A stretch of 63,316 nucleotides of DNA, counting the filler, from Sphacelaria rigidula (lineage: Eukaryota): NCBI GenBank assembly GCA_964200075.2. It is 10 parts of 10 records of this genome, joined end to end, with 100 filler letters (N's around TTAATTAATTAA, not from the genome) between each part and the next. Parts side by side here need not be neighbours in the genome. Positions count along the whole stretch, not along the records: positions 25,369 to 31,610 come from CAXNAA020021282.1; 9 more parts are not named here. One strand, 5' to 3'. The notes beneath the pieces were generated by a model. The model was not told the origin of the DNA and searched no databases. It saw only the letters and a program-made list of their open reading frames with translations. Shown piece after piece: positions 9,067-56,171 of the stretch. The translations under genes and the position numbers were made by a program. Each line of letters begins with the position of its first letter. The first letter of the stretch is position 1.

Positions 9067-10512
9067 AGGAGGGCGACAATCACGCGCAAGGGGGTATGGG
9101 TATTGTCGCAGGTCAAAACGCGGACCGCCTTCCGCACGAGAAGAAGGAACAGCAGCAGTATCAGCAGCATCGTTATTGCCAGTACATGTACGCGGCTGGG
9201 GGTGGGTCTAAATCAGCCGGTGCCGATACTGCTGCTGCCGTTCTTACTCACATGAGACAAACGGTCCGCGTTTCGATCGTGTTACAACCCCCACGCACCT
9301 CGCACGTGATATCCACGGTGCTGGAAAGCGCTGGTCCGTACTACCCGTCGATAGGTCTATGCTTGCTCTCTAGGCTACGTGTTGGGATATGAAGCTGTGC
9401 GCATCTCTGTGTGCGAGCTGTGCACGTCGGGTATGTCTCGCACGCGTGGCTGCTGCTGCTGATGGGAATGAAGCCAGCGTCCAATACAGGGGAAAACAAG
9501 TGATACGTACTCGTACTGAACATGCTACTACTGTCTGTATGGGGGTAACAACAGATCGTAGTCTACTTTGAATAATACTGTACTTGTACGAGGGGGCAAT
9601 AACGCGCCAGGTCATGAATAGTGCCGCACGTCGAAACGCGGACCGCCTCCCGCACGAGAAGCAGCAGCAGTAGTAGCAGCAGTAGCAGTATCTTTGTTGC
9701 CAGTAAATGTGTACGGCCAGGGGTGGGTCTTAATCAGCCGGTGCCGATACTGCTGCTGCTGCTGCTGCCGCCATTTTTCCTCATGCGAGAGACAGTGCGC
9801 GTTTCCATCGTGCTACAACGCCCACACACCTGGCGCGTGATAGCTACCATGCCGGAAAGCGCTGGTCCGTACTGCCCGCTGATAAGTCAATGCTCTTTCA
9901 CCAGGCTAAGTGCTAGAAGATTCAGCTGTGTGCATCTCTCTGTGCAAGCTGTAAACATCGGGTGTGTCTCGCACGCGTGGCTACTACTGGTGACGGCCTT
10001 GGAAGAATATAGCCAGCGTCCAATACAGGGGAAAACAAGTGAAATGTACTTGTACTGAAATGCTACGACAATATACTGATATAATATAAGGGTAACTACA
10101 CGCCAACAGATCATAATCGATTTCATGTGGGGAGGCGGAAATAACGCGCCAGGTGGATGAGTATCGTCGCATGCCGAGACGCGGACCACCTTCCGCACGA
10201 GAAGCAGTAGCAGCAGCAGCATCTTTATTGCCAGTATATGTGTGCGGTTGGGGGTGGTTTTGAATCAGCTGGTACCGATGCTGCTGCTGCTGCTGCTGCT
10301 CTTCATCGTAGACGGTCCGCGTTTCGACCGTGCGACAACACCCACGCACCTTGCGAGTGATGGCCACTGTGCTGGACAGCGCTGGTACGTACTACCCACC
10401 GATAGGTCCATGCTTGCTTACTCGGCAAGGTTCTGGGAAAAATAGCTGTGCGCATCTCTCTGGGGGAGCTGTGCACGTGGAGTGTATCCGTCTCCCACGA
10501 GTGGCTACTGCT
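9067..10512. repeat. Tandem array of ~2.7 units of ~520-540 bp, each containing a ~240-nt hairpin
   Basis: Units start at ~9067, ~9590 and ~10129. Each has ACGCGGACC..CGCACGAGAAG..CAGCAGCAGTATC paired with GATACTGCTGCTG..GGTCCGCGTTTCG. Confidence 0.85.
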
Positions 10513-12463
10513 CGTGACCGGATCCCAACTGTCTGTCCCATGAAGACCTCAACAGCCTTCTTCCAACCATGTCATGTTCCTCCTCGCAGTCTCACGCGAA
10601 TGTCCCTCCGCTCTGACGAAAATTAATTCTCGTTGTAAACACTCAGATCAAGTTGTCTCAACCATGAGTAGTTGTAGGATAACACCTGTCGACTCTACAG
10701 TCGGATTCGGTCGACATGATACTTGTGAGGACAGGAATATATATTATACATCAACGGCAACGCTCAACGCGTGAAATAAAAACAGTTGCCATACGGCTGG
10801 TTGCAAACATGTACGGTGATTTTCGCTTATTCGACTCAGTTGCTACTCGAACAAAAACACTTTCAACTCGTGCGTTGATTCGTGCCATGGGGCAATAGAA
10901 ACAAACGTACCTTGATGCGTCGAATCTTCTTGGTTCACCTGAGTTTGGCAGCAGGCAACGTTCAGAGCTCCACAGCACACGCCCGACAGTGTGGTCTATG
11001 GTACGGTACTGGTCGGGGCATTGGTGCCGGTTGGGACCCCCCGAGTACTCGTGGCACAGCAACAGACAGTGAGGTACTGTACCAACATGATTGCATTTTA
11101 TTATAGTACAGAGAACAGTAAGTACACCGAGGACGAAAACTATTGACGCAGGTCCGCCGCTTCATGCGGTCCGAACCAGTCGACGGGCTCGTGCATTTCC
11201 TCTCCTTGCTCCTCTACAGCTGTTGGACTCAAATCGCAACATCGGCTGCCCCCTCTTCGTGCATCGCGTGACCCCACTTCCTATAACCAGGTGTACAGCA
11301 TTGTTACACCACTGACAACAGTCGGCAGTTAAGGAGGACACAGCGAGTAACAGTGCAGAAAGTAATCGTGTCCTTCTCGTGCTGGCCCATCTACAAGTAC
11401 GAACATTACTGAATCGAGAAACTTGACTTACATGATTCCCCAACTCGTGTGTGCGTATAGTAAGAGGGCTACATTTTATTTTGGTTCATATTCTGTTGCT
11501 CACGGATGTGCGTATCGTGCGCCGCATCGTAGTCGTAATCCCAACACGCCTTGTTGGGTGCCAACGATGTTGCGTTTCGCACCTACCTCATGTATCAGCA
11601 GTGCCAAAACACCTGGCCCAAGCCCTTCTTCGAAGCCTGCTCGTTGATGACAATGTTACGTACGGCAGTGTCACGTATTTACAGGGTCGGGGTTTTGTGG
11701 AGGAAGAACTAATTTGTTGTTCCTTCTTTCACGGTTTCACGTCTGGACCTGTCATTGACATCATTCTGTAAAAAAAAAATGGAACCGCCCCGTGGATGGT
11801 GCCCCTTGTAAAAAAGCTATATGATATTCTAGAAAGAAGAGAAACCATCACATACTACCCCGACCTACCGAGCAGCCGCACGGCTGCATAGTTGTCAACC
11901 CAGCAGCAACTTTGTTGCGGGAAAGACGTGTGAAATATATGTTGACGTATTTATGGATGAATAGAACAACAAGCAGAAACAGATTCAGAAATCGATCGCG
12001 CGGGTAGGCCCTGCGCCCCCACATGTATCCCAAAAAGTGTGTACATGCAGTGATGCTGGCGTCCAGAATAGATGGGACTTGGCAACACACTACGCACGCG
12101 CGCGCCCTGCCCTGGTGGCATACGAGTGTACGTGTTATTTCCGCAGCCAAGGGTCTGAAAATGATCAAATTATCACGTATTTCTTGATTTTTTCGTTAAT
12201 ATTATTAGTCAAGAAATTTATCAGGAGACACTTGCAAAACCCGAAAAGTGTGGTGGGCTTATTTGCAAGGTTCGTACATATAGTATCTAGTATATATTTA
12301 CATGTATCCTTTCGCATTTTTCACAACTTTCGCCGAGTTTTCTCTGGCGGTAAGGCATTTTTCGTCGCGCTTTCTTCTGCACTAATATAATAAGGGCACG
12401 ACCTCTTCGGGGTGGGGGATGCAAATACGAGCGTGCATGTCGCGAACGCCTCCAGGGCCAAAT

Positions 12464-12584
12464 GACACTTTCTACGATAATAGCCCCCCCCCAAAACCAG
12501 CGAAAAGTGTCACGAAAAAAATGACCATGCAGCGCCTGATGTTCGGGTTCAGGATGCATCAAGCGCGTCATGTTGGCGCCATGG
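12464..12584 (+). mobile_element. MITE family D left half, cut by the contig edge
   Basis: Starts with the GACACTTTCTACGATA..CCCCCCC terminus; the body matches 17892-18140. Confidence 0.8.
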
Positions 12585-16743: not shown

Positions 16744-17891
16744 GTGAGATTTTCACAGCAAGCGTCGCCTCGGAACAGATTCACAGGCTGGCGATTGTTG
16801 CAATCGGCTAGTGTGAGATAATCAATCAATCAATCGATCGATCAAGTCCGGGGACATCCGGGGGGGTGCAGAGGACGGGGGGGGGCTGTTCGCAAAACAG
16901 CCGAAAAACTTGCCGAGTCAACCATGCGTGTTGAAAAGTTTCCCGCGGAAAATTATAAGCCAGTGACGAGACCCGAGAGGAGCGGAGTGACCATTCTGAT
17001 CAATCACGGCTATCAAAATGGTCACTTTATTCCCCTGCAGGTGGACGACAGGTGGGCGGACTACTTCGCTGTCTAGCCGTATTTCTCGTTTTGGTCATGG
17101 CAATTTAACCAAAAATAACACGGACGCAAATAACGTGCCTTTTGTACTCTGCTCGTGGTCTATGCTGCCTGCCTGGCCCTCATGTGCTGCCAGTACAGCT
17201 TCATACTGTCTGCAGTGTTATTTTGGAAGACTTGACAGAGACGTCAGCAGCATCCAGCTCAGTGGAGAGCGATCGCACGCTGATTTTTTTCTGTCGTTTG
17301 TGTCCAGCGGAGACATACCGCGCACATACTGGCTCTGCACGCCATTGACTGCAGGGTCAAAACCGGTCAGGGGTTCTCGGGGACTTTCTTCTATTCAGAT
17401 GCCCCAACATGTACGTGTGTGTTAAAAAAAGACATTTTGTGTGACGAGAAAAGAGCCGTTTGGAACCCCAAATGTGACGGAGTCCATCTGAGTCCATGTG
17501 AGGGGGGTTCGCGTCTAAGGTCAAGGGTACATGCCGAAGTTTGACTCGAGAAGGTACAGAAAAAGTGAAAGTTATCCATGTGTTTATACAGAGAGAGGAA
17601 TACGTCATTTTTAGGATACATACATCCTCCAGCTATGGGCCGGTGAAGGGCGGGTTCAAGGGCGCGTTTCATTTTTTCTCGTCCCCTCTTCCAGCTTTTC
17701 CGTGGGCGCGTCTTCACGCGTAGAACGGATACACAGAGATCGTCATAGTATAAGTGGAGTAGAAGAATATGTGCTGACGTGCTTCCCCCCCGGCAGGAGG
17801 CTCCAACTCTGGAGCTCTTGTCCCATGAATCGGCTGCATCTGAACGACTATCGCTAGCTGTCAAATATCGAGTGGAAGTAATGTCAATTTT

Positions 17892-18140
17892 GACACTTTC
17901 TACGATAACCCCCCCAAAAAACCAGTGTCATGGAAAAAATGATCGTACAGCGTCTGATGTTTGGGTTCAGGCTGCATGAAGCGCCTCATGTGGGTGACAT
18001 TGGCGAGAACGAACCCAAGCCTGGGAATTCCCAGCTGCTCGTTGTGCTCGATTTCCTCCATTTCGATTTACGCGAACATTTTGCCCCCCCAAACCAGGCA
18101 CTCTTGTGAGGGAGGGGGGGGGGCTATCGTAGAAAGTGTA
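17892..18140 (+). mobile_element. MITE family D (249 bp) with 4-bp TSD TTTT
   Basis: TTTT|GACACTTTCTACGATAACCCCC...GGGGCTATCGTAGAAAGTGTA|TTTT. Confidence 0.9.
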
Positions 18141-18693: not shown

Positions 18694-18926
18694 GGGAGGG
18701 GGGGGGGTGTACTCATGATCATGTATGCCATAGTCGTAGGACCATTGGCCTCGCATCCCTTCAAAGCCGGGATGGAGCACCACGGGTTTTCGCCGGACCA
18801 GGCTCGCGATCAATCACCAAGGGCCAAGCGCTGTGGTATGTTCGGCGAGTCGCACGAAGGGTGAACTGCATCCTGCCAAGATTGTTCGGCGCGAAGCGCA
18901 CTGACTATCTTGCAGTTGGATGACCG
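18694..18926 (-). mobile_element. 3' part of the poly(C)-tailed SINE-like element
   Basis: On + it reads as a G-run followed by GTACTCATGATCATG.ATGCCATAGTCGTAGGACCATTG.CCTCGCATCCCT; colinear with 41132-41350. Confidence 0.85.
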
Positions 18927-23929: not shown

Positions 23930-24352
23930 CGTCGGGGACAACGACAAGTACTTCGTTCGCTGCGAGCACTGCTTCGTCCACGACCGTGCGGAGCTCCTCG
24001 CGGACTCGGAAGAATTAGAAAGAAACGTTCGCCTCCGACAACTATTGAATAGCTCGCCTCCAACGCATGCATCCACACTCCTAGCAAAGAAGACCGGACG
24101 CTGAACTCCGCTGCCCGGCAGAGACAACCTTGTCACCCCACGCGAGGCCGACCTTGCTTGGGGTGACCAGGTTGTCTCTTCCGGGCAGCGGAGTTCAGGG
24201 CTTCTTTCTTAGGAGTGTGCATGTTGTGTTTTGAGGCAAACGCTTCTTTGCAATTCTTCACGTGCGCTCTTCAAACTCCACGAGGAGCTCCGCATGGTCG
24301 TGGAAGAAGCAGTGCTCGAAGCGAAGGAAGTCCTTCTCGTTACTACCCGCGG
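23930..24352. repeat. Long, essentially loopless inverted repeat (fold-back) centred at ~24149/24150
   Basis: The inner stem 24101-24198 is nearly perfect (CTGAACTCCGCTGCCCGG.AGAGACAACCT.GTCACCCCA vs its reverse complement). The outer arms GAGCACTGCTTC.TCCACGACC.TGCGGAGCTCCTCG also pair. Confidence 0.9.
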
Positions 24353-24903: not shown

Positions 24904-25268
24904 TAGCCTGGTCCGGCGAAAACCCAGTGTGCTCGGTCCTGGCATTGTAGGAGCGGACCCCCTATAGGATTGGCATCGCTTGGCGATGACGCTGTACAAT
25001 CCGCCACTCACTGCGTAAGCTAGGCAACCAGCTTACCGATTTGTTTTGCGCGCTTTTTTTACGGTAACCATGATGGTGGTCGAGCTAGATCATGTTGTGC
25101 GGGGTGGGATAATCTTAACTCCAAGCAAAGGGGATGATCGTACTTCGTGGTGTTTAAATGGTGAGACATCCATGAGGCAGTATATAAGCCGTGGCTGTCT
25201 CTGGAAGTAGCAATAACAGAAAATGAAGCAACTCGCTGGAGGCTGTCATCCAAATGCAAGATAATCAG
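24904..25268 (+). mobile_element. 5' part of the poly(C)-tailed SINE-like element
   Basis: Starts TAGCCTGGTCCGGCGAAAACCC after a C-rich flank; colinear with 31268-31610. Confidence 0.85.
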
Positions 25269-25368: not shown

Positions 25369-25429
25369 TGACCTCACATCCCTACAAAGCCGGGACGGAG
25401 CACGCCGGGTTTTCGCCGGACCAGGCTCG
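25369..25429 (-). mobile_element. 5'-truncated SINE-like copy abutting a G/C run
   Basis: TGACCTCACATCCCTACAAAGCCGGGACGGAGCACGCCGGGTTTTCGCCGGACCAGGCT followed by a G-run at ~25431-25448. Confidence 0.85.
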
Positions 25430-26471
25430 AGGAGGGGGGGGGGGGAGGTACACGTGTTCGACGGGCGGCTGCCCCCATACATCATAGATAATCGCGATAG
25501 CAAGTGCTGCACCAAGGGGTCCCACTACCTGGAGGCAAGCATCCACTCTTTTGATGATGGGAAAAAAACGATTGTGGGCGAGGCCTGAAGATAGGGTTAC
25601 AGCAGTATTGCGTTGGAGTACCCTCCTACAGATACAGTGATGACAAAAGCCAGGGCTGTTCTCGCTGCTTTCACCACATTTCCCCCCCCCGTGGTTTGTG
25701 CGGTATGTAGATACTATCCGCGATACCGCACAAATTTGCAATTTTCGGCGCCCATCAACCGCGGTACCACGTTACTTGTTTCCAATTTACCGCGCAAAGC
25801 ATACCGCTAGTCGCTTGTAGCGCACCGTACCGTATCGCAGATTTTCCTGACCTCTCGGCACTTCACCGTGAATTACCGCAGCCGTCCGGTGCAAGTACCG
25901 CAGACCACCGGTACCGCACCGCGCCAAGACAATAAAAAATACGTAGGCATGCTGTGATGTCAGTGACGGGCCCAAGCGAACACATGCGGCCCCTTCACCG
26001 TAGAACAGTTGAGTTCAAACGTTCGAATCCTACGCAACCGCTTTCTTAACAAGTGTTTGTTGTTTGACTCGTGATTTTCCACGGATTTCCCAAGGGCTGG
26101 CAAGATTTTAATCCGGGCACCACATAATCCCCTGCCTCCCCCTTTTAACCTGTGAGAACAATCTCACACATTGGCCGTAAAGCACTACGTACACAGTATG
26201 AAGGCCCCTGGAAGCCACAGGGACTACTGATTAGGTGAACTGATCTTTGCTACACCCCCCTTACAAGGTGCGGCGCCATCACCGGTGAGCCCCCAAACTC
26301 AACGGCGTCACTGGCATTTTGAAGAAATCACAAATGTTCGATCATTCTGAGTTGCGGTCGAACCAATGTCCGAAAGGAAATACATCCTTGCTCCGAGTCC
26401 AGCAACGTAATTTCAATACGTGAACAAACTTCAGAAGTCTGACTACGGGTGGCAGCTCAATAACTGATTTC

Positions 26472-29400
26472 TGTAGCCAAATACCAAGCCGTAGGTTTCA
26501 CTATAATCGCATGCATGATTGGAGCAGTGGCAGGAGACAGGGGATCCTGGATTGATGACCCTTATCTGCGTGGCCCCTTGTTGTCTGGCTCATGATGTGG
26601 TCTGTTTCGGGATCACTCCTTGATAATAACAAGGGAGAAGAAAGGACCTGTCGAGCACGAGGCCAGTGCTACTGGAGGAGTCCCTCGTGGATAGTCCTTT
26701 TGTCCAGATCGTCTGGCAGAGGCTACAATATCTAGATATTATTCTTCCGGCACTCTGTTACATGAGTTTGGCTGAGGAGGTAGTGGGCCGCAGCTGAGAG
26801 CCGGTTTAGCCCGCAGACAGGAGGAGACCACCTTGGAGCGCACAGCAGTGGAGGACGCTCCGTGAGCTGGAGGACGCACAACTCAGCCAAGAGTCTCTCC
26901 GTCAAGTGTTTGAAGCATAGACGACATGGCTCAAGCAGCGGCAGCGCCGCTGGTGTTGGGTGAGCCACTAGAACCGCCCAAGAATGGCGAAGTGTGGACA
27001 GAAGAGGCATCACGCGTTTTTTTCGCAGCATGTCTTGAATACATACAGCATTGGATTCTCCCGGATTCACAGGGTATCGTGAGGCATGAGAGGGTGAGGA
27101 TAGGTCATCTTATCCCTACCTATATTCATCGATGCTTCGAAGATATGTACAAGGACCGTCGGGCTATGACCCCCGACGAATTGCTTATGCTGTGAAGCAG
27201 CATGCCGGGTACACTACAACTGGCGGAAAGCATGCCGCTACGCGGACTGCAGCAGACCTGCGTGGAGTTCTTATTACGGACAAAGCAGTGGGAAATGATG
27301 GTCAGTTCAGCTATGGAAAGGTTCTTCTAATAAAACCTGACGGTGCAAGCCATGTACCGTGCGGAGGACACGAGTTGGTTGCCAGGCCTGGCCGAGTCGG
27401 TTTCCATAGCTTTGGTGGACGGGATTTCGCCCCCGGAATTCAAGGCGTATGTCAGAAGTGTACAAACGTATGGTGACAGCTGGAAAAAGAACCCGACGGT
27501 GGTGTTCAAAAAAATATTTGAGGCGGCCGACTAGTGGAAGTTAATTGAAGCACATAGCCGGCGCGATTCTCCAACAAGTGCAGGTGGTACGCGCCGCAAA
27601 CAGCAACAGCGACAGAAACAGCAGCCGTCTTCGCGAGCGTCGTCCATTCGCGCGTGTTACAACTGCGGCGACACCGGACATATGATCAAGTACTGCCCCA
27701 AGCCTCGCGCTCAAGGCGCTGCACAGGGCAATGCGCGAGATTCATCAGGATCTCGGGGCGGTCGTCACGGTGGACGGGGCCGTGCCAATTAGGGACGCGG
27801 GCGTGGCGGCCGCGGTAGCAAGCAATCGGCGGCGGATGGTGCTTCCTCCGCTGCTGGTTCTCCCACCACGTCATGAGGTGGTGACTCTGGATCTTATGGT
27901 TCGTCCGTAGCGGGGTGGACAGTGCACGTGGGAAATGCAAATTCTTCGGTGGGGAGTGCTGGAGCGAATAGCTCGCAACCCCTCGGCCAGTCAGGATCCG
28001 TGTCTGGTGCATTCCCTACTGCTGCGACGGCTGTAACAGCGCCGTCTCTGCATATTCGGCGACTTGGTCTGGTTAAACCGACGATTCGCAGCTATCGATG
28101 TCAAGTGCTGGAGGGCAGCCCTGGCGTCAGGTGACTCTTGGGACAGAACAGGGCTCTTCGGCAGGCGTGGTACCTGTCGATCGCAAGGTTGAATGCTTAC
28201 GCGCAGATTTATCCTTGCCTTGTTCTGTAGGTTCGTTCATGGCCCGCGTTATTCTGGATTCTGGGTCCGCTCTCACGTCGATCGGTGTGGGGTTACTTGA
28301 GCAAGTGTCTTCGCAGTTTGGCGGCGCTCAGCTTCAGATTCCGTTCGAAAACGGACCGCACACGACGCAGACCGCCACGGGTGCTCCCGTGACGGTTACA
28401 CACAAAACGGTGCCGATTACTGTAGGCGTGCGTACGCCGTGGGGGGCTGTGGAGTTGCAGCTCATTGCTTTCGCTGCCATGCCCGGTAGGGACAACGTGG
28501 TTCTATTTGGGATGGCGGCGATGAAGGAGCTTGGGATTGATTTGTATCCGCTGGCGTTGGAGAAGCTTCGACCGCGTGCTGTGCCGGTGCAAACCGGCGT
28601 GGAAAACCCTAGTTACCTTGCTGCAAGGCGTGTGATCGTATCCATACGGCCAGTCCAGAGCGCCAACAAGGAGGAGGCTCCTGCTGATGAAGCGGTAGAG
28701 CGCTTGGTCGATCGCGGGCCCGACATGTTCATGAACCCAGCGGGGGAAACAGGTGCCAGAAAACGTGCAATTGAAGATAGAGTGCAGCTGGCCGAGCAGA
28801 AGGGTCTGAGCGCCGATGGCGCACATTGTCTGCGCGATAATTTGGCTCGTCGCGTAGATACATTTCGTCGTGCGCCGCGTGGTGATCCGCCAGCGCGCGT
28901 GGAGCAAATGAAGGAGGCTGTGAAGGACAAGCCTCGACGCTGCGATCCGGTGAAGACCGTGTGGCTTGCTTCATGCATCGCAGCTTTGGTGGCATTTGGT
29001 TTGTTGGTTAGGAATATTCAGGCTGTGTGGGCGAGTCCGGCCATGGCGGTGCCGAAGAGAGACACATTACGTTTGGTCAGCGACTATGAGGCGGTGAACG
29101 CGCAAGTGGAACAGTCTCCGGGGGTGGTGCCAAGCCAAGGAGACATGCGGGAGTTACTTGGAGTCCAACAACAATATCGGTATGTCATTGAACACGTTCC
29201 TGGAGAGCACAATTGTTGGGGAGATCTGTTGTCTCGCTGAGTGAAGCCCCCTACCGTGCCTGTTCGTTCTGTTGCCATGTACAGCCCGTGTGATGCCGAT
29301 GATTCGCTGCCTTCGTTTGATGTCATCGGTACCGCGCAGCGCAAAACGGTCGGCGGCGAAGTTCATTTTTTTTCTACAACTTTCGGTCGAGCTACGTTGG

Positions 29401-31210
29401 CTGACGATGGTTTGTTTCGCGTGCGTGTTGGCAGTAGTAATATTTTGTGGATTCTGTCGGATGATAAGGCTCTACAATCTCGCTCGATGGTGTGCGCTCA
29501 CATGCGGTCGGGCTGGTCACCGTGGTGTGGCGCCGACTCTGTTTCGTTTGAATGAATACTGTGTGTGGCCTCCCATGGATTCCCACGTTCGCGAGTTCGT
29601 TTGCCAGTGCTTGAATTGTGTAGACACTCGTGCTGGTGAGATTGTACCTCGTCCGTATGGCGATACTGTGCATGGTGCTACGTCAGGTGAAGTTGTTCAC
29701 TTTGATTTTCTGTCCGTCGGAATTAGCGGACCTGAAGGTGCTAATGGTTTGCCCGAGGAGGATGGTTTTCGGTACGTTTTGGACATCATGGATGATTTGT
29801 CCAATTTCGTTTGGTTGAAGCCAACCGAGGTTTGGACTGCCGATGTTACGGTTAAGCACTTGCTCCATTGGTGCAGGACTTTGGGAGTGCCACGTGTTTG
29901 GGCTAGTGATACCGCCACGCACTTCAAGAATAGAGCGATCGCGCAGCTGAGCGATGCGCTCGAGGTGCAACACCAATTTGCTGTTGCGTATACCCCTTGG
30001 TCGAATGGTGCTTGTGAACGCATGGTGAAAGAGTTTATTCGTGCGTTGCGGTCTATTTCGTCGGAACAGCGATGGCTGGTGTCTGTATGGGTTGATGTTT
30101 TGCCAGCCGCTCAGTGGGCGTTGAATACTTTTTTTGGTGAACGCTACCGTAACACTCCGTATTGTGTGATGTTCGGGCGTACGCCGCGTACAGCGTTTTC
30201 CGCGCTGGATCTGTCACTGGCGGCGAGTGGAACATCGATGTCATGGATGCTGATTCGTTGCCTGACAAGGTTCGAGGCATGGTTGACGAGCAAGTGCGGT
30301 TTTGTAACGAAGTGCACGCAGCTGGCGCGGTGTCTTGCGAAACCAATCGCAAGCTTGCTCAAGGCCAGGCTGTGTTGCCCAGGTTTGCAGTTGGCGATTT
30401 CGTATTGTATGCCCGTGTTCGTATGCAAGGTGTGACGCCAAAGTTGATGTCCACGTGGACAGGTCTGTGGCGAGTGGTCGGAGCCGACCACGCTCACGTG
30501 TATTCGGTGCAGAACATTGTTTCTGGCGCCGTGCACTTGGCCCATGTCGCTCGTTTAGGTTTCTATGCTGACTCGCAGTTGCAAATCACTGCGGAACTAA
30601 AATATGTATTTCAGCATTCGTATGCTCAAGGTGAATGTCGCATGAATGCTTTGGTGCACGTCGCTGAGGATGACAATGGTGATGTCATTGTTTTGGTCGG
30701 TTGAGAAGGGTTCGGTGCTGAAGAACGTACGTGGGAGTCTCTTCGCAAGATTCATTCTTCTGCGCCTGAATTTATCTTGAAGGATCTGCGTAAAATGCGG
30801 TTGACTCGGGCGCTGACCAGTAAATTAGCGTCGGAGTATGGTATTTCCTTGTGATCTGGCGCATGCGATTTCGCCTTGTTTTTGTTGGTTGTCAAGCTCT
30901 TTCGTTGTCTTGAACTCGCTTTGAGGGTGCTGTAGCCAAAGCTGTAGCCAAAGCTGTAGCCAAATACCAAGCCGTAGGTTTCAGTATAATCGCATGCATG
31001 ATTGGAGCAGTGGTAGGGGACAGAGGATCCTGGATTGATGGCCCTCATCTGTGTGGCCCCCTGCTGTGTAACTCATGATGTGGTCTGTTTCTGGATCACT
31101 ACGCGATAATAACAAGCGAGAAGAAAGGACTTGTCGAGCACGAGGCCAGTGCTACTGGGGGAGTCCCTCGTGGATAGTCCTTTTGTACAGATCGTCTGGC
31201 AGAGGCTACA
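26472..31210 (+). mobile_element. Ty3/Gypsy LTR retrotransposon with chromodomain, decayed and missing most of RT/RNase H
   Basis: 256-bp LTRs TGTAGCC...GGCTACA at 26472-26727 and 30955-31210. Gag knuckle CYNCGDTGHMIKYC at ~27655, protease ILDSGS, the RT start (WASPAMAVPK..LRLVSDY), integrase HHCC plus VHFDF/ASDTATHF/NGACER, and a C-terminal VLVG*EGFGAEERTWESL chromodomain. Contains stops and frameshifts. Confidence 0.93.
26926..30853 (+). pseudogene. Disrupted gag-pol (Gag-ZnK, protease, truncated RT/RNase H, integrase, chromodomain)
   Basis: ORF pieces 26926-27195, 27343-27534, 28098-29240, 29272-30435 and 30162-30704 are joined by in-frame stops and frameshifts. Confidence 0.88.
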
Positions 31211-31267
31211 GCTTCAAAGAATCCCGTCGCCTCTATTCCCTCCCTCCACCCCCCACCCCCCCGAATA

Positions 31268-31610
31268 TAGCCTGGTCCGGCGAGAACCCGGCGTGCTCCG
31301 TCCCGGCTTTGTAGGCGATGACGCTCTAAAACACGCCTACCACTACGTAAGCTAGGCGACCAGGTTACCGTTTTTTTGGGGGCGCTTGCGGGTTTTTTGC
31401 GGTAACCACGATGGTGGTCGAGCTAGATCATGTTGTGCGGCGTGAGAGAACCTCAACTCTGCACAATGGGGATGATCATTCCACGTGGTGTTTAAATGGT
31501 CAGGCACCCATGAGGCAGTGTATGAGCTGTGGCTGTCTGAGGGAAAGGCGATACCACAAAATAAAGCAACTCATTGTAGGCTGTCATCCAAATGCAAGAT
31601 AATCAGTAGG
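31268..31610 (+). mobile_element. 5' part of the poly(C)-tailed SINE-like element
   Basis: A C-rich flank (~31236-31262) is followed by TAGCCTGGTCCGGCGAGAACCCGGCGTGCTCCGTCCCGGCTTTGTAGG...GGCTGTCATCCAAATGCAAGATAATCAG. Confidence 0.88.
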
Positions 31611-31897: not shown

Positions 31898-32156
31898 TAC
31901 ACTTTCTACGATAGCCTCCCCCCCCCCGCCAAAAGTGCCTGGTTTGGGGAGGCAAAGTCTTCACGTAAATCGAAATGGAATAAGCCGAGCACAACGAGCA
32001 CCTGGGAATTCTCACGCTTGGGTTCGTTCTCGCCAATGTCGCCCATATGAGGCGCTTCATGCAGCCTGAACCCAAACATCAGGCGCTGTATGACCAGTTT
32101 TTTCGTGACACTTTTGGGCTGTTTTTTTTGGGGGGGAGGCAATCGTAGAAAGTGTC
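31898..32156 (-). mobile_element. MITE family D (259 bp) with 4-bp TSD ACTT
   Basis: ACTT|TACACTTTCTACGATAGCC...GCAATCGTAGAAAGTGTC|ACTT. Confidence 0.9.
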
Positions 32157-32302
32157 ACTTCTAGTGGAAAAATATTCCGAATTTATCAAGGCCTTTTGAG
32201 AATGTAACTGCCGAGGCTAAAAAAAAAGCGGTGAATGTTTAATCCCGTGATGCGTCGTTGTTCGGAAGTTACAGTCGACAACCTGCACTGTATGTAAGTT
32301 TG

Positions 32303-34054
32303 CAAGGTTGTGTTCTGTAAGGTACGGGTACAATCTGTAGGGTATGAGATTCCTTACAGAACTTACAGAACCGTCGGGTACCGGTATAAAAGTCTCACAG
32401 AGTTTACCGAGCTGTCGGGTACCGGTATGAAAGTCTTACAGAAGTCACATAACTTGTCGGGTACGGTATGGGAGGCTTACAGAAAACCGGTACCGGCAAT
32501 CGGGTAACTTTTTTAGGGTATACCCGCCCCTCGGGTTAGGGTAAAGTTTTTGTACAGAACTCCCCGAACTATCGGGTAAGGGTATGGGCGGCTTACAGAA
32601 CTCGCAGAAACTGTCCGGTAGGGTATGGAGGTTGCACAGCAGACCGTACCCGCAACCGGGTATCTTATCAAGAGCATACCCGTGCCCCCTGGTAACGGTA
32701 TGGGAGGCTTACAGAACTCACAGAGCTATCGGGTACGGGTATGAAGGTCTTACAGAGTGTACAGAACTGTCGGGTACGGTGAATACCCGGCAAAATACCC
32801 CGGATATACAGAAAGTCGTCCCCTCCAAAACACGACCTTGTTATCATCCTCACTCCTGTGGTGGGACCTACGTCATTACAACAGTGGCGGAATACAAAAG
32901 ATGACAGTTCACCAAAACTTTGAACGGCTTCACGGGGTTGATAGAGAAAGACTACACGAACAATCGTAGTAGTACATGTGCATGGGATAGTCAGCATAGC
33001 ATTATATCGGCTTCACGTACACTCCCAGAGAATACATGAAGGAGTATTCACGGGTGCCCGTTCTCTGGAAGCCCTTCGGCATGCGACAAAATCGCCGACG
33101 GGCTTGACGACTTTCGGTGGTAGCTCATACTCTGTGCTGTACATGTCGATAACGGCCTGGGGTTTGATGACCACAACACAACCACCATCGACGTCGATGA
33201 CATGCGTCTTCCTACTTGATCCGCTGGTAGCGCAGATGAACCGTCCCCGCTCGAGTCACCACTCGAGTCTGGGGTGATCCATTCTGACGGTCTGCAGTGC
33301 TGCTCATGTTTCGTGTTTCCACTCAGCGGTACCTCGTATCTTGCCAGGGCCCAAACTAAGAACTTTTCAACATTGCATTATTGTTGGTGTGCAGTTTTGA
33401 ATGAAGGAGTTGGGTGGGTTGATTGATGGGAGGTACATGTTCAGGTCATGAGGTTGTGTTTGGATTGAACCTATATCCGTGCTTCCCCAAGGTATATGCT
33501 CATACCTGCAATCGGGTGTATCTATAACGGTATACCCTCACCCCGGGTAGGGGTATGGGAGGCTTACAGAGCTCACAGAACCGTCGGGTACTGGTACTGG
33601 ATGAAAGTCTTACAGAAATTACAGAACTTGTCGGGTACGGTATGGGAGGCTTACAGAAAACCGGTACCGGCAATCGGGTATCCTTCAAGAGCATACCCGA
33701 ACTCCGGGTACGGGTAAAAATTCTGTACAGAAGTCACAAAATTGTCGGGTAAGGGTATGGGAGGCTTACAGAACTCACAGAAACTGTCGGATAGGGTATG
33801 GAAGTTGCACAGAAAACCGTACCCGCAATCGGGTATCTTATCAAGAGCGTACCCGTGCCCCCCGGTAAGGGTTCGGGAGTCTTACAGAGATTACAGAGCT
33901 ATCGGGTACGGGTATGAAAGTCTTACAGAGATTGCAGAACTTTCGGGTACCGGTATTAAAGTCTTATAGAAGTCACAGAACTGTCGGGTACGGTAAATAC
34001 CCGGAAAAATACCCCGGGTATACAGAAACCCGTACCCTACAGAACACAGCCTTG
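32303..34054 (+). mobile_element. Composite hAT-like element: two family-C MITEs (32303-32840 and ~33449-34054) around ~600 bp of unique DNA, with 8-bp TSD TAAGTTTG
   Basis: TAAGTTTG|CAAGGTTGTGTTCTGTA...TACAGAACACAGCCTTG|TAAGTTTG. The MITE bodies are made of ~39-bp TCGGGTAC(C)GGTATG..CTTACAGAA repeats. Confidence 0.85.
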
Positions 34055-34548
34055 TAAGTTTGTATGTAGAGCCATTAGAGCAATCTTGGTGGAAGTATCT
34101 TCAAACATCGCTTCGCGTGGCTCAAGTTTTCGAGTCATAACCTACCTAAACTTCTGACACGCGATCCGCCAGTTCGGCTCACCAACACATTCCGAGGACC
34201 TCCGCGTGTTTTCTATTTTGTTCTTCGCCGAAGTACGACTAAACCAATTGGGTCGAGACGCAACTAACCTCACTCAGCGATCGTATCTCGGTGAAAAAAC
34301 GCGATGTGGATTCTCGGAATATATGTGTGCTAGTACCTTACGAATCACGTGCCAAATGTTTAGGTTCCAAGTCGAAGAATTGAGCTACGCGTGGCGATAT
34401 TCGCGAATCCCCGACCTCTTGGCCGGTCTAGCTTGTACGTAAGCAGCATTCCAAAAAGATCAATGATGCATGAAGATGTTAACAGCGAGTACGGTGCACA
34501 ATTCTACCGTAACAGAAAGCGTACACGTGCATTCTACGGCTAGCTGTG

Positions 34549-37654: not shown

Positions 37655-37892
37655 TACACTTTCTACGATAGCCCCCCCCCCCCAAAACCACCCCAAAAGT
37701 GTCACGAAAAAAATGATCATACAGCGCCTGATGTTAGGGTTCAGGTTACATGAAGCGCCTCATATGGGCGACATTGGCGAGAACGAACCCAAGCGGGGGA
37801 ATTCTCAGCTGCTCGTTGTGCTCGGCCTTTTTCATTTCGACTTACGTGAACATTTTGCCTCCACAAGCGAGGCATTTTTCGGGGGGGGGGGG
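37655..37892 (+). mobile_element. MITE family D copy whose right-hand G-tract is interrupted by a LINE 3' tip (37893-37952)
   Basis: Starts TACACTTTCTACGATAGCCCC. The G12 run is followed by CGTACTCA.TTGTTGCTTGC instead of CTATCGTAGAAAGTGT. Confidence 0.85.
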
Positions 37893-38052
37893 CGTACTCA
37901 ATTGTTGCTTGCTTTAGTCGTTTGATCATTGACCACGCATCCCTTTCGAGACNNNNNNNNNNNNNNNNNNNNNNNNNNNNNNNNNNNNNNNNNNNNTTAA
38001 TTAATTAANNNNNNNNNNNNNNNNNNNNNNNNNNNNNNNNNNNNNNNNNNNN

Positions 38053-38240
38053 CTGATAATCTTGCATTTGGATGACAGCCTACAATGAGTTGCTTTATTT
38101 TGTGGTATTGCCACTTCCAGAGACAGCAACGGCTTATACACTGCCTCATGGGTGTCTAATGGGGGCGGGGTGGGCGTACTCATTTGTTGCTTGCCTTAGT
38201 CGTTTGACCATTGACCACGCATCCCTTTCGAGACGGAGCA
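38053..38240 (-). mobile_element. SINE-like fragment (38053-38154) adjacent to a LINE 3' tip (38175-38240), separated by a G-tract
   Basis: Both match the other copies. G-rich tracts lie at 38161-38174 and ~38246-38263. Confidence 0.85.
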
Positions 38241-39171: not shown

Positions 39172-42100
39172 CTTTTTAAGTCCAGCGGTCGAGGCGTACT
39201 CCCGGCTGCTGCTCCCATCGCTCGCGCTCGCGACCACCCCGGTAGCGTTCCCGCCTTCCACGCTTCCTCAAAATCATCGTCGGTTGTGCTCAGCACCTTT
39301 CTCACCCCCCCCCCCCACCCCCAGAAATCGAAAGTTCAGAAATGCAAAAGCAAGAGAAATCTTTCAACTTCATTGCCCCGCCGGGCGACAGACCTCTTGT
39401 CGGAACATATCATTGATCTTCAACATCGATTATTCTGACGTTGCAGCTGAGCAGCTCCTCTCTGTCTCTGATTATACAACGAAAGCAGCTTCCCTTCATC
39501 TCAGTGGACAACCTAGGGCCCATCTGAGCAGGTTCGACACCCACGGGGTTCCAGTCCTGGGTTTCTGTTCCAATATTTTGTCCGTTGACAGAGTCCCACG
39601 AGTTTCAGGAGGATGGTTCTTGTAGGCGTGGATGGACGCTAAACGGAGATACGCGGTTTGGCAGGAGTGACACAAAACTCCAACTCAAGCCAAAAAGGCA
39701 TGCCGCAACACGTTGGCATGGTTGAGCGAGCAACGTTCACGTTTTTGGTTAATGCACAATTCTGCGATGGATGCTCATGTCCCCGTACACGCGAAACCAC
39801 ACACATATATATATATATATATATTGGTGTGCTCATCGACTACTGTGTTTTTTTGTTGTTATTGCTGTTACTGCTCTTGTTGTTTGTTATTTGGTGGTGG
39901 TGTTGTTGTTATTGTTGTTATCGTTGCTTCCTTTCTTTTTTCGTTTCTGTGGCTGTTGTTTCAAGCGTTTCTGTTTCTTTCATTCTTTAATTTTTCTCAT
40001 CCTGTTTTTTTTTGCTGCTCCTGACCACGGGCTGGGTTGTTGCAATCAGCTAATGTGAGATAATTAATCAAGCATGATCTGCGACCGTTATATGCTGCCG
40101 ATCGTGGCTTTCACGCACGAGTAACAAGCTGCGTGGCACATGCGTAGCAATGATATCATTTTGTGCAGGCTGCAGGCAGTGTTTCTCCACCGAAAAAAAA
40201 AAGTTCCGAACTCCTCACAATCAGCGCGTAAGCTTTGCGTCCCAATTTTCAACAGCGGTTTGAGCGGTAGAAGGGTTGAGCCCATGAGAGAAACTGCATC
40301 AGCGAACGACCACGTGAGCAGTGGGAAAGTATGAAGGCTCTGACTGTTGACATATCGTTGTTTTGTCTCCATGACTTCCTGCGGGAAAGCGCGAGTGTGT
40401 TTGTGCTGCAAGGCTGCTTCAATTCGTGTAGGTCGCCGAATCAAATCAAGAGCACCAACTGGAAAACGGTAGAATAACACCTTGCCGCGGCAAACGTACG
40501 CATCGACAGCTGTTGGCTACTAGTGGAGTTTACAAGGTTTTTCGGTCACAGGCCATTTTGTACGCTGTGGGGGGAAATGGAACGACAAACACGGTAATAA
40601 CCCCAAGTATTGTAGACACGCAAGTGTACACAAACGCGCACATGACAACTCAGAGAAAATAGATATACCAACCTAAGAAGGGCTATGCAACATGCAGGAA
40701 TTGACTGACACAGCAATGACTTGGTCTAGTACACCCCCTACTTCGAGCTGCCGACGGTGGCAACCTACCGAAGATCCTTGGGACAGAGTATGATAGTCTA
40801 GGTATTCAGTACTTCCAGAGTATTTTCGGCCTTACTACCCTCGGGTACCTGAAGAATCCATGGCCGAAAATCCTCACTGTTATCAGAGTATCGCCTGCCA
40901 AAAACACCAGGTAATCCGCAGCACCTAGAGTATCGCCACCTCAAATTACTCGTACTCGCACCCTACCCTATCTCAAGCATCTAGTAGAGACACCTCGAAC
41001 ATTTTGGTGCTCATTACGTTCTTTCCATACACTATGAAAAAAATATTTTGCATGTCTTATCCCCGTCCTGTTTCGCCCTCTGTGACCACGATCCATCTCC
41101 TAGTATATCCTCATAAAAGGGGAGGCGGGGCGTACTCATGATCTTGCATGCCATAGTCATACGACCGTCGACCTCGCATCCCTACGAAAGTCGGGACAGA
41201 GCACGCCGGGTTTCCGCCGGACCAGGCTCGCAATCTATCACCACGCGCGAAGCGCCTTGGTCTGTTCAGCGAATCGCATGAAAGGTGAGCTGCATCCTGC
41301 TAAGATTGTTCACCCCAAAAAGTACAGATTATCTTGCATTTGGATGACAGCCTCCAACAAGTTGCTTCCTTTTCTGGTATTGTCACTTCCAGAGACAGCC
41401 ACGGCTTATACACTGCCTCATGGGTGTTTTACCAAAGAGGGGGGAGGGGGAGGGATAACGATATCACCTCACAGCAGAAGGAACCCCCACAGGTGTCCGA
41501 CAAGTTATCATCACTCTTTACAAATGAACACAATTCTCAACACCGACGACACCGACAAACGCCTCCCTGCCCCGGCCCTCGGCCGCAAAACGTTCTTCAA
41601 AGCAGTTTTTCATTCTTAGTCCCAGTTTTCCCCCCCTCCCGGATTCACCTCATCAAGATCGACGAGGGGCTGCGTGCGTTTGAGGAAGCTCGCCAGATAC
41701 TCCCGTAAGTCTTCCAGGAAGTGAGCGTACGCCTTTCCGCGGACCTGTTCAAACGTCCGAGCGCCAGATGACGTAACAGCACGGAGTGCAGTAAGTTACG
41801 TTTCGCGCGACAGTTTGAGAACCGTAGGTGAATAATCAGCAGGCACAATGAGAAGCAAGCGCGCCAACTACAGATCGTAATGCAGCCGCCACATTCCTGC
41901 AAGGTACTGCACTGTGCTGCACTGTGCTGCACTTGTCTCGTGCCTTTTTTCAATCTGACACTAATCCTAATCCCAACCAAGCCTAACCAATGCATATGGT
42001 GGGGGATGACAAAACACAGGGAATACGTGTGAGTGGAGTAGAGAGCAAGACGGAACATGATATTTGTTTCGTCATACTGTTTCCAAACCTTCACACCTTC

Positions 42101-50561: not shown

Positions 50562-50634
50562 AATGGTGAGGCACCCATGAGGCAGTGTATAAGCTGTGGC
50601 TGTCTCTGGAAGTGGCGATACCAGAGAATACAGC
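50562..50634 (+). mobile_element. 5'-truncated SINE-like fragment after a C8 run; another at 56873-56975
   Basis: AATGGTGAGGCACCCATGAGGCAGTGTATAAGCTGTGGCTGTCTCTGGAAGTGGCGATACC. Confidence 0.85.
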
Positions 50635-51090: not shown

Positions 51091-54000
51091 CTGACGCTCG
51101 AGCCGTTCTTGAGCCTTCCTCTCCAGGGCTGCCTGCTTTTCCCGTCGTTCCTTTTCCTTCCGTTCTAAAGCCAGCTTCACGAGTTAACAGCAACGACAGA
51201 AAGGCGCAACAAGTATTTACACACACACATACTGCTTTTGTTGAATTTTTTGATGTCCTAGTCTACTATGTCGTTCTGCTCGGCTCTTCCTGTTCCTTCT
51301 TCATCTTCAGCGAGTGTTTCTGTTTCTGTTTTTTTTTTTTGGGGGGGGGGGTTATGTCCATCATGCAACCATGGCTGGATCATGACTCCTGGGGGGTCAG
51401 TGAAAGTGCGACAATCATATACACGTACGCATATACGCATGTGTGTGTAAATAGGTCAATGAATCCCTTCAGTTTCTTTAGTTTTCTCCTTCCTGTTTCG
51501 TTCTACTCCCGAGTGATACTACGGTAGGGGTACACAAATATTTTCTGAGGTTAGAATTGTTGGGAGCCCTCTGTTTCATCCAATCCACGACTTATGAAAT
51601 ATGTGAGAGTGCGCCAGGATTACTGGTCCAATGTGGTGGGGATATCCCGAATATATTTGCAAAATGGGATGCCCTGACCCATGTGCTTGTGCACCTAGAA
51701 TCGTAATGAGCTCCCAAACCAGACAAGATGTGGCACAGGAAGTGCATTCCTACCCTAACATTGTTCTCCCTCTCCCAACTTCTCTTCTATCAATGAATCT
51801 CGTGGCCACGACTGGGGGAGTCCCTTAAAGATGAGCTAATGTGCGACAAAAAATGATAATCAAACGAGTGCTTCCGCTCATGAACCTTTCGAAGTACAGT
51901 AGAGGGTTGTCTAAGTACCTAAGGGTATTCTGGGTTTTTTCTGGCGTACTACTCTTTGATAGAACTCTAAATTGCTAGCGTCGGTAAATTTTGGTACAAT
52001 AAACACATCATCCTCGAAACACAGTGCCCAAGTCAGTGTTAGTTGGTGTTATCGAGGCGTTACGGATAAATACCCTGTTTATCAGGAGGGTGTTACTGAC
52101 CGTGTTACACATTTTTTCGGCTCTAGTGCAATGAGTAGGCAGAATTTTTGAAAAATAAAACTACACGTTTCTTCACAAATATGATCGGGGCAGGCTTGAT
52201 CGATCGAAAATACAGAAGAGTAAGAATCTGGGCTGGGACGTGGCAGGACCCCCGATGACTGGTCAGCCCGTAAGTCACTCAATATATGAAGTACGGATGT
52301 TTTTTTTCTTAGTGGTGGAGCGGATACAAATATCTTCAGATCACCGATGTGATAAGCGGTGCCAAGCAAGAAAAAACCAAGAAAATTGCCAATTACGAAA
52401 AAATCACAAAATGCCACAAAATGAAGAGTTAGACCGCCCACTACTGTAGGTACCACATGTCCATCTCGCAACAGCGGCCAGGGTCCGCGGCAGACCCTTC
52501 GATATACCCCCAACAATCAATCAAACAATTCATCATCACCACCGTCAACCGCCGAAAATATATATTTCCCTTCTCCACTTTTCCTACTGGAGTTTTACCC
52601 AGCGACTGTCCAAGTTCTACTTCTCGCTGAGCAGAATATTCCAACCTTGTGTTCCATGGTGCGAGATTTCTTGTATACCCGGGGTATTTACCCTCTTATT
52701 ACCCGTACCCGACACTTGTGTAAGATCTGCATGAATTATTTACCCTTACCCGGCGTACGAGTTCATTCTTGTGGATATACCGGGTTGCGGGCATGAGGGT
52801 TTCTGTACAACGTCCATACCGTACCCGACAGCCTCTGTAAGTTCTTTGAGACTAAAGCACACCCTGGACAATAGATTATACTGTAAAAAAATTGTACAGT
52901 ATGGCGTATATTGTCTGTTGCAATAGGCGCAATAGTCGATACTGTACGCAGTACACTTTTTGACTGTGTTTTCTGTTGTCCAGGGTGTGCTGGCATACCA
53001 GTACCCGACAGCTTTGTAAGTTCCGTAGGAAATCCATACCCTAGAGAACACAACCCTTGGATACTCCATCTTGTGACCACGGTTATAGTCGTAACGGGTC
53101 TGTTGAGGCGAGAAAATGAATCATTGGATATATAAAGAGATGCATCAACGGCGACACTAACACATGAGGGAGCCCGCAGCAGGAACTTGACTGATAGTCG
53201 CACCTCAACTGATTTTCCAGGTAGTCATGATCCACATGATAGTCACATGATGGACTTACCCGGGATAAAAACGAAACCGAAACACTCGCTGAAGAAAATT
53301 GAAGAAGCGAAAAATTTACAACTAACAAACAGGCACACGGCTAAACAGATATATTGCACAACTATATGCCAAAGCGCGTTATGTGCTGAGAATATCCATC
53401 TTTTCTCCCGTGGACATCACGTGCATCTCATTTTTCTCCATCTTTATTCCACAAATTCGCGTTCATATTTTGCCGCCAGACTTAAACACGACTGAACTTC
53501 AATCATTTATCGCCCCATCAACTTGGTCGAAGCTCATTTCATGCACGAACTTCTCTGCCCTACTCTCTCTCTCTTGATCTCTGTTACAGGAAATCTCTAT
53601 CGTTTCCGACCGCGGGTCAGATGACAAGGGCTGATGAAATGAGGATTAAAAAAAGCAACATAAACACAGCTGAAGACGATGAGGAAAGAAATGGAAACGG
53701 CTCATGTTTTCCGCTGTCTTCTACTTCCATACCCACTGTCTTTATTCTCAGGCGACTTTGTGGCGATTGACTGGGCTCACCTGCTTCTCTCGTTGCTCCT
53801 TCTCCTTCTTTTCCATGGCTTCCCTCTGAATCAAAACGTGCCGCAGCACCAGAAAACACGACGAGGATAAACGCCAGCATCAGCACAAGAAAACGGAGGA
53901 AAAAAAAAAAAACGCGAGAGCAGAAGAACCAAAAGATGGGGAAATTACCCAGCACGGGAAGAACAATTCATCCGGTCGGGGAAATAGAGAGCAAAATAAA

Positions 54001-55332: not shown

Positions 55333-55870
55333 CAATGTCGCGTTCTGTAGGGTACGGTTTTCTGTATACCCGGGGTATTTTGCCGGGTGTTTACCGTACC
55401 CGACCGTTCTGTAAACTCTGTAAGACTTTCATACCGGTACCCGTTAGTTCTGTAAACTCTGTAAGACCTTCATACCCGAAACCGATAGTTGTGTGAGTTC
55501 TGTAGGCCGTCCGTATCGTTACCGGGGGGCACGAGTATGCTCTTGATATGATACCCGGTTGCGGGTACGGTTTTCTGTGCAACCTCCATACCCTACCCGA
55601 TAGTTTCTGTGAGTTCTGTAAGCCTCCCATACCCTTACCCGACAGTTCTGTGAGTTCTATACAGAATATTTACCCTAACCCGAGGGGCGGGTATGCCCTA
55701 GAAGAGTTACCCGATTGCCGGTACCGGTTTTCTGTAAGCCTCCCATATCGGTACCCGAGAGTTGCTTAATTTCTGTAAGACTTTCATACCGGTACCCAAC
55801 AGTTGTGGAAGTTCTGTTATGAATCTCATACCTTACAGAACGTACCCGTACCTTACAGAACACGATCTTG
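55333..55870 (-). mobile_element. Family-C hAT-like MITE (538 bp) with 8-bp TSD GAATTATG
   Basis: GAATTATG|CAATGTCGCGTTCTGTAG...TTACAGAACACGATCTTG|GAATTATG. Confidence 0.9.
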
Positions 55871-56101: not shown

Positions 56102-56171
56102 TGCTCTGTCTCGAAAGGGATGCGTGGTCAATGGTCAAATGACTGAGGCAAGCAACAAATGAGTACGCCCC
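56102..56171 (+). mobile_element. LINE 3' tip (66 bp + C tail) with perfect 16-bp TSD CCCCCCTCAGGTAGTA
   Basis: TSD copies at 56086-56101 and 56172-56187. Confidence 0.92.

Follow-up and report, generated by a model that had tools for sequence, protein, structure and literature searches.

Ten fragments of a short noncoding repeat with a LINE-like tail lie scattered along the window, the whole stretch of 63,316 nucleotides of Sphacelaria rigidula DNA that was analysed, and they raise the question of whether they belong to a SINE that merely borrows the tail of a LINE or to an element that descends from the LINE at both of its ends. The window is a scaffold of contigs, and the N-linker-N spacers between the contigs interrupt most element copies.

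Structure and distribution of the element

A consensus built from the 30 best genomic matches measures 561 bp and runs from AGCCTGG to GAGTA(C). It opens with a direct repeat of 48 bp (R, nt 1-48) that recurs at nt 467-514, the two being identical at 47 of 48 consensus positions, and the second R is followed by a 48-nt tail ending in GAGTAC and then by A(C)n. An earlier note on this DNA had described a terminal repeat of ~47 bp that returns near the 3' end and had found no ORF, and both observations hold, with no long ORF present in the six frames of the consensus. All ten fragments align to one element, as the same note proposed, but the length of ~530 bp that it assigned was too short and the head was hidden from it, because a deletion of ~30 bp (nt 49-78) in the copy at 31269-31610 takes out most of the LINE-derived head. 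Among 39 3'-complete matches, 10 reach both element ends within one contig (one of them, L015, with an internal N gap), and thus the 5' and 3' parts belong together. The copies in the window are as follows, with element positions given as nt.

1-67, minus strand: copy beginning at nt ~268, continuing off the window
18709-18926, minus strand: 3' part, from nt ~347 to the end, cut by a gap
24905-25268, plus strand: 5' part (nt 1-370) of an apparently intermediate R-bearing copy with the 3'-type A at R16, cut by a gap
24963-25006, plus strand: head homologous to the extreme 5' end of the LINE, found by a LINE-head profile
25369-25429, minus strand: short copy beginning at the 3' R (nt 465) behind a C-run, cut by a gap
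31236-31268, plus strand: C-rich target-side flank of the copy at 31269, read from its sequence and from the general C-richness of upstream flanks
31269-31610, plus strand: 5' part (nt 1-374) of an apparently younger R-bearing copy, cut at the contig gap at 31611
31269-31315, plus strand: 5' direct repeat R of that copy, 5'-type with G at R16, second half resembling the LINE tail
31316-31340, plus strand: remnant of the LINE-5'-derived head, with element nt 49-78 deleted
31340-31490 (approximate), plus strand: predicted three-way-junction RNA domain (nt ~103-254), from consensus pair probabilities
31363-31407, plus strand: predicted hairpin with a symmetric U-rich internal loop and ENE-like architecture, decayed in the copy at 31269, its T-runs doubling as Pol III terminators
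38053-38157, minus strand: copy truncated at the ~260 hotspot, sitting in the C-run behind a LINE tip
41132-41434, minus strand: 5'-truncated copy, nt 261 to the end, with the 3' R at 41228-41180, the tail at 41179-41132 and both flanks C-rich
50562-50634, plus strand: copy beginning at the ~260 hotspot, cut by a gap
56873-56975, plus strand: copy beginning at the ~260 hotspot, cut by a gap
63290-63316, minus strand: final 27 nt of the tail of a further copy

Across the 244-Mb genome, a 20-base gapped pattern for the 3' end has 857 exact matches and a 16-base pattern for the R-bearing 5' end has 323, with 0 for both reversed controls, indicating that the ends are not chance. Given that copies lie ~5-16% off the consensus, true copy numbers are several-fold above these pattern counts, and a first look at the genome gave 5752 candidate copies. 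In viral and metagenome contigs the head pattern has no match, and the tail pattern identifies 73 metagenome loci, of which 3 are LINE ends and none is the element. Binwise coverage of the element in organism B (run X12) extends to 24 of 30 bins.

Several other repeats share the window. A MITE-like repeat of ~260 bp (31898-32157, 17891-18140, 37656-37892 and 12460-12582) has TIRs with C/G runs, which are landing sites for the LINE and the element. A Gypsy-type LTR retrotransposon at 26471-31211, with 257-bp LTRs that are 92% identical, TG..CA ends and broken protease/RT/integrase-like frames, ends 58 bp upstream of the copy at 31269. In addition, there is a dispersed family of ~500-bp repeats made of 41-bp tandem subunits (32300-34055, 55333-55873 and 52667-52853), and long imperfect palindromes or clusters of inverted and direct repeats are found at 23940-24341, 9061-10518, 4731-4853 and 52856-52991.

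The partner LINE as a source of both ends

The LINE "tip" to which the element tail is homologous is where the coding frame of an EN-RT LINE ends, with the stop codon 4 nt before the C-run. This partner encodes a single EN-RT ORF; its protein relatives are 1328-1360 aa in length (P0002, 1360 aa), contain endonuclease and RT domains and, where named, come from Ectocarpus and Sphacelaria, pointing to a brown alga as the probable host. Walking upstream revealed a 5' UTR of 1.5-1.9 kb, carrying 63-bp tandem repeats, ahead of an ORF of ~4.1 kb, with a sharp 5' end behind a C-run. The repeat array (L138:75-1900, also L126, L131 and L132) is variable, with 63-bp units in a 125-bp higher-order pattern, and is reminiscent of promoter monomers. 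In an alignment of 30 LINE 5' ends, a head motif is located ~16 nt from the start and is followed by the LINE 5' UTR; some LINE heads have variant sequence downstream. Individual LINE copies range from ~4.6 to 6.7 kb as a result of indels. Stops are present in most of 147 endonuclease-region matches, among which no second LINE family stood out and none was closer to the element. The window holds two longer remnants.

60353-61427, minus strand: degenerate 3' ~1.1 kb of the LINE, aligning to P0002 aa 994-1360, with the ORF stop 4 nt before the C-run
54075-54537, plus strand: LINE 3' remnant with a nested LINE tip

LINE tips of only 40-70 nt are also seen (37894-37952, 38176-38240, 54477-54537, 56102-56166 and 57088-57220), several of them inside one another's C-runs, and very short 5'-truncated insertions are common. 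Beyond this genome, the C-terminus of the LINE is matched by an Ectocarpus protein of 1927 aa (P0007) that contains LTR-type RT/RNase H and NADAR Pfam domains and is probably a gene model joining two elements, and three marine metagenome contigs (L281, L289 and L322) carry the 3' end of a LINE of this group with 81-98% protein identity to P0002. A recent Ectocarpus survey describes, in its available portion, two LINEs with (C)n ends, RTEX-1_Ec32 and RTEX-2_Ec32, which measure 5.5-5.9 kb and encode one EN-RT ORF each (Dinatale et al., 2025; PMC12477816). The partner LINE agrees with this outline in its single EN-RT ORF, its (C)n end and its size of 5.5-5.9 kb, and it would therefore be of the RTE-X type, an assignment by description.

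The 3' end of the element and the last 66 nt of the LINE are identical at 56 of 66 positions. When the tail is compared with a structure folded from the LINE alone, changes fall at 1 of 42 paired positions against 9 of 24 unpaired ones (p=2.7e-4), and the sole change at a paired position preserves its pair, which is what a recognition structure would be expected to show. The proposal that the element is a non-autonomous partner sharing its 3' tail with a LINE is thus supported, extending to the conserved stems. At the other end, element nt 63-103 correspond to LINE nt 17-57 with 34 of 41 positions identical, and the alignment score of 54 compares with a maximum of 35 in 1000 dinucleotide shuffles. 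A LINE-head profile matches 26 of 30 element copies at E<0.01; within the window, its best match is 24963-25006 (E=0.013), the only one with E<0.05. A SINE with an unknown head is not supported, as the head of 41 nt that lies behind R comes from the 5' end of the LINE itself, and T-runs of eight and nine further argue against Pol III (see below).

Between the two ends, the middle of ~390 nt matched nothing in LINE loci L126-L175 except inserted copies of the element, so the element is not a plain internal deletion of the LINE; it is a composite variant rather than one made only of LINE sequence. It nevertheless has the features of bipartite non-autonomous LINEs, namely a LINE 3' end, a LINE 5' part, no coding capacity, 5' truncation and target-site duplications (TSDs) of variable length. 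Since both head and tail derive from the LINE, the element is most likely a bipartite non-autonomous LINE derivative, and the full reading, in which a C-tract-targeting EN-RT LINE gave rise to a composite derivative that acquired its terminal duplication in a single event, is considered likely with good confidence.

Integration into C-tracts and history of the terminal repeat

Element copies are embedded in C-rich DNA, with a C fraction of 0.51-0.55 upstream and 0.59-0.62 downstream against a background of 0.25. TSDs, which the earlier note had named as a point to check, are present and of variable length: TSD scores are higher within copies than in cross-pairs both in a set of 42 copies (p=0.0015) and in a second set of 27 rows in which one copy appears twice (p=6e-6), with only 8 of 42 and 7 of 27 individual TSDs above the control 95th percentile. 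The clearest TSDs are ~7-25 bp in length, mostly begin in C's and often overlap the 5' end of the element by 1-3 nt, and 0-15 nt of A(C)n separate GAGTAC from the TSD. The combination of C-rich sites and variable-length TSDs indicates that the "poly(C) tail" consists of a short added stretch followed by target DNA that was duplicated. Accordingly, the poly(C) end reported earlier stands as A(C)n, but the DNA is C-rich on both sides and part of the run is duplicated target. The C-runs of older LINE or element ends often receive new copies.

Truncated 5' ends are concentrated at nt 253-268 (4 of 19, p=0.003), immediately downstream of the predicted domain at nt 103-254, and stalling of the RT would be the simplest reading of this hotspot. 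The possibility that a separate short SINE begins at nt ~260 was considered and dropped, because the starts are scattered over nt 253-268, have no fixed lead and occur in both of the subfamilies described below. In the proposed mechanism, the LINE protein would bind the conserved 3' stem-loops of the element RNA, nick the G-rich strand of a C-tract and reverse-transcribe by target priming, with the RT adding a few C and often stalling 3' of the folded domain.

Two subfamilies are distinguished by their 5' ends. When the first 30 of the 857 3' ends are considered irrespective of 5' extent, 7 begin at nt 63 and two more at nt 66 and 72, and the leads of the nt-63 starters are short, T-rich and of the (T)TTGA or TTAA/TCAA type. 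Subfamily A, of ~505 bp, has no 5' R, carries its own diagnostic bases and begins with a C-run and TTTTGA directly before the head. Subfamily B has R plus 14 nt ahead of the head, placing its AGCC start ~55 nt upstream of the A start. A search pattern for the A head gave 57 exact matches against 0 in the control, and R is absent from all 20 copies fetched, partly by construction of that pattern. The A head is identical to the LINE at 37 of 41 positions versus 34 of 41 for B, one A copy (L358) equals the LINE sequence across the first 28 nt of the head, and identity to the subfamily's own consensus is 84.3% in A (16 copies) versus 88.5% in B (11 copies).

The two copies of R are themselves distinct. 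At R16, 24 of 32 5' copies carry G, whereas A predominates in the 3' copies (46 of 52). Within one element, the two R show 6.15 differences versus 6.37 for R of different elements (13 copies), and only 1 of 72 variant sites is common to both R of one element. Additionally, the 3'-type A at R16 is kept in 4 of 4 R-bearing copies with an A-like body versus 3 of 28 with a B-like body (p=0.001). The closer likeness of the A head to the LINE, the greater decay of A and the R16 pattern together support the order LINE, subfamily A, early R-bearing form, subfamily B; judged from these sequence comparisons, A is the older subfamily and B the younger.

The near-fixed difference at R16 and the rarity of head-to-tail junctions (2 versus 857) indicate that the 5' R goes back to a single duplication of the 3' end. 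An arrangement of R and tail, a C-rich stretch and then the head is present in L211 and L226 and is taken as the putative precursor layout of the R-bearing form, and minis consisting of R and tail with clean TSDs occur at L222 and L233. R would have arisen once, when a short fragment of R and tail was put into the C-run before an A-type copy by nested insertion or one template jump. Most of the tail would then have been lost between the new 5' R and the head, and the two R copies would thereafter have been inherited separately, with only occasional exchange between them. The earlier idea that the 5' end is a duplicated piece of the LINE tail survives insofar as R was copied from the 3' end of the element, but likeness to the LINE tail is confined to the second half of R (nt ~24-48). 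Tandem or circular RNA as a routine mechanism, also raised at that time, is contradicted by the junction counts, the near-fixed R16 difference and the existence of an older R-less subfamily; a single template jump is a possible origin of R.

Retrozymes and Penelope pseudo-LTRs are short non-autonomous retroelements with terminal repeats, and R could by analogy be regenerated in each cycle through retrovirus-like strand transfer, circular RNA or tandem multimers. R-junction loci do exist. Two (L176 and L177) stand against 857 3' ends and 323 5' ends of normal structure, and a set of 30 examined 5' ends held one more (L248). At L177, a partial dimer with a truncated 5' end lies within a plausible C-rich TSD, as a jump of the RT between R copies would give, and 5'-type R is joined directly to the tail in 7 of 30 examined loci. 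Three of these 7 end at contig ends, and of the 4 minis that could be checked, none is flanked by a clear TSD; short-read misjoins may account for some of them. Exchange between R copies, real or artefactual, is rare. Regeneration is quite unlikely, given that R pairs within an element are no more alike than those between elements, that the G/A difference is near-fixed, that the R-less subfamily A transposed successfully, and that the element, unlike retrozymes and Penelope pseudo-LTRs, has no hammerhead core (CTGANGA) or HDV-like fit, few multimers and a 5' repeat without the tail end. A terminal direct repeat would also suit a solo LTR, a TRIM or a DIRS/Ngaro-type remnant with split repeats, and Ngaro elements are abundant in Ectocarpus according to the available part of one survey (PMC12477816). 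Such an origin, or one as the 3' UTR of another autonomous LINE, is extremely improbable: the element has no TG..CA ends and no fixed TSD of 4-6 bp, its repeats are not regenerated together, copies are 5'-truncated, and both head and tail are homologous to the LINE, while none of 30 unselected 3' ends runs upstream into coding sequence and the endonuclease-region matches yield no second family. Of the alternatives raised in the earlier note, neither a solo LTR, nor the 3' UTR of another autonomous LINE, nor separate elements behind the 5' and 3' fragments is borne out.

Two further observations on R were not upheld as evidence. Contig joints that go back 458 are explained by double mapping of R and carry no information on circles. 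Likewise, copies that begin exactly at the 3' R, from which R might have been read as a self-sufficient start signal, are not in confirmed excess: among 30 examined of 66 such matches, ~13 are ordinary 3' ends with a mutated lead, and the remainder are near the number expected from truncation and R-R deletion by a rough hand estimate.

Transcription and RNA folds

A true SINE would be a Pol III transcript with a small-RNA-derived head and only its tail in common with the LINE. The size of the element, its lack of an ORF, its LINE-like tail and its very high copy number would agree with this, as would the absence of T-runs of at least 4 downstream of nt ~260 and the head hairpin, which presumably recalls, loosely, a tRNA D-arm. 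However, ARAGORN found no tRNA in the window, and the Rfam comparison proposed in the earlier note matched nothing over the element, either in the window or at 7 loci, three of them with complete copies. The A-box is absent and the single B-box, at nt 462, has 1 mismatch, in keeping with the previous failure to find a convincing tRNA promoter pair. The sense strand also contains T9 at nt 135 and T8 at nt 155, with runs of at least five T kept in 59 of 60 copies. T-runs of such length would stop Pol III, which argues against transcription by this polymerase. As the head is present at the LINE's own 5' end and the starts near nt 260 are scattered, a true SINE is very improbable; the element works like a LINE-dependent SINE, yet it is not a Pol III SINE, and its RNA would be made by Pol II via the LINE-derived head, as in the LINE. 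Another possibility concerns the 5' end itself, which could be generated by a self-cleaving ribozyme of the sort found in many RTE-clade LINEs, its core formed by the head hairpin and a possible pseudoknot. Ribozymes have been reported at RTE 5' ends in the accessible text of Kojima (2018; PMC5786205), the 5' ends are sharp in the LINE, A and B, the ~55-nt shift between the A and B starts is not explained by a fixed-distance promoter, and a short closing stem can be drawn in the LINE and B. This is nonetheless unlikely, as no Rfam ribozyme matches, the head z-score is only -1.1, the predicted head pairs show no excess conservation, and descriptors written here for HDV, hammerhead and twister ribozymes matched nothing in the element, a weak negative run without a positive control. 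A loose pistol-like match at nt 256 is not meaningful, and an HDV-type P1 pairing and an H-type pseudoknot drawn by eye in the head have no statistical support.

Downstream of the head, the consensus is predicted to fold into a three-way domain at nt ~103-254 with pair probabilities mostly of at least 0.9, and the fold signal at nt 121-240 is z=-3.8 (antisense -3.2). Within it lies a hairpin at nt 127-171, found in both the A and B consensus, that consists of a 9-bp stem, a U8/U7 internal loop, a 4-bp stem and a tetraloop. Changes between A and B in the middle show no selection on pairs when judged by single-sequence folds (B, 4 broken and 1 kept; A, 2 and 2). An apparent avoidance of stems in a joint RNAalifold fold (14 unpaired, 3 kept, 0 broken) was rejected as circular, having disappeared with the single-sequence structures.

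In the published outline, an ENE is a stem-loop whose U-rich internal loop adjoins G-C pairs, as given in the consulted part of that work (PMC7583470), and an ENE raises the RNA stability and mobility of the LTR element Evade, according to the part available of another (PMC12501189). The hairpin has this outline, and as in the described ENEs, a stem with a U-rich loop is found in an intronless transposon RNA (PMC7583470; PMC12501189). An ENE-type descriptor, written after the motif had been seen and run on loci that were not de-duplicated, gave 0 matches in 818 kb of non-element sequence, where 793 T-run pairs occur. As these sources describe them in the portions available, ENEs are found in the 3' UTR, near a poly(A) or A-tract, or at the 3' end, mainly of LTR and DNA transposons of plants and fungi. 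In contrast, the hairpin lies at nt 127-171 of 561, ~390 nt from the 3' end, in an element that ends in A(C)n and encodes no long A-tract, its best internal one being AAAATAAA. The antisense fold signal, almost equal to that of the sense strand, and the lack of selection on pairs in the middle likewise speak against an ENE. It is conceivable, though doubtful, that the element is a Pol II parasite in which an ENE-like loop would bind poly(A) in a stabilising triplex and the terminal repeat of B would set a new 5' end and permit RT jumps between R copies; it is equally doubtful that, in this joint reading, both RNA modules were gained by the element and are absent from its host LINE. If true, this would be a case of an ENE in a non-LTR, C-tract-targeting retroposon and could explain the abundance of the element, and the R jumps would represent a small natural step towards an LTR-like R region.

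Relation to known families and significance

The closest described counterpart is RTEX-N1_Ec32 of Ectocarpus, which is noncoding, ~600 bp in length and, at >6000 copies, the most abundant family there. Its ~60-bp 3' end is 83% like RTEX-1/-2, its TSD is C-rich, and it has "weak homology to 5' of RTEX-2_Ec32", "can be present in tandem" and is of a 5' origin stated to be undetermined, all as given in the portion of the survey available (Dinatale et al., 2025; PMC12477816). The present element corresponds to this description, compared by description only, in its size of ~600 bp, RTEX-like tail, C-rich TSD and 5' likeness to the LINE, and most likely it would be of the RTEX-N1_Ec32 kind, a kind already known in Ectocarpus. 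The two differ in length (607/604 bp for RTEX-N1_Ec32 versus 561/~505 bp), and the accessible description of RTEX-N1_Ec32 contains no mention of a terminal direct repeat, an older R-less subfamily or a U-rich loop, though its consensus may contain R. "Sower" is described as the most abundant Ectocarpus repeat, at ~2.5 Mb, in the available part of its source (PMC3145265). RTEX-N1_Ec32 totals 2.48 Mb, and this equal genome share suggests that the two are probably the same family.

Bipartite non-autonomous LINEs such as Bov-A, RTESINE1/2 and WALLSI3 also combine LINE 5' and 3' ends without an ORF, and Pol II transcription is presumed for them; in the accessible text, the sources named are only RTE, Ingi, Vingi and R2 (Kojima, 2018; PMC5786205). 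Unlike these, as far as that text describes them, the present element has a head of only 41 nt, a middle of ~390 nt untraceable to the LINE and a younger form fronted by a 3'-derived repeat. Searches of the open-access literature outside Repbase turned up no description of such an element with a terminal repeat, an R-less precursor or an ENE.

A specialist in transposable elements would find these results neat and helpful but not greatly surprising, a view that would change if the ENE or the R jumps turned out to be functional. The results define small testable parts, namely the 41-nt head as a promoter or 5'-end signal, the ENE-shaped loop and the 66-nt tail, whose conserved stems make it a candidate recognition signal of a C-tract-targeting RT. 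The series from LINE to R-less to R-bearing form would be readable within one genome, and RTE-X-type LINEs are pointed to as another source of bipartite parasites. Furthermore, the 5' end of the LINE as the source of the head provides a concrete answer, in a counterpart, to the question of the 5' origin of RTEX-N1_Ec32.
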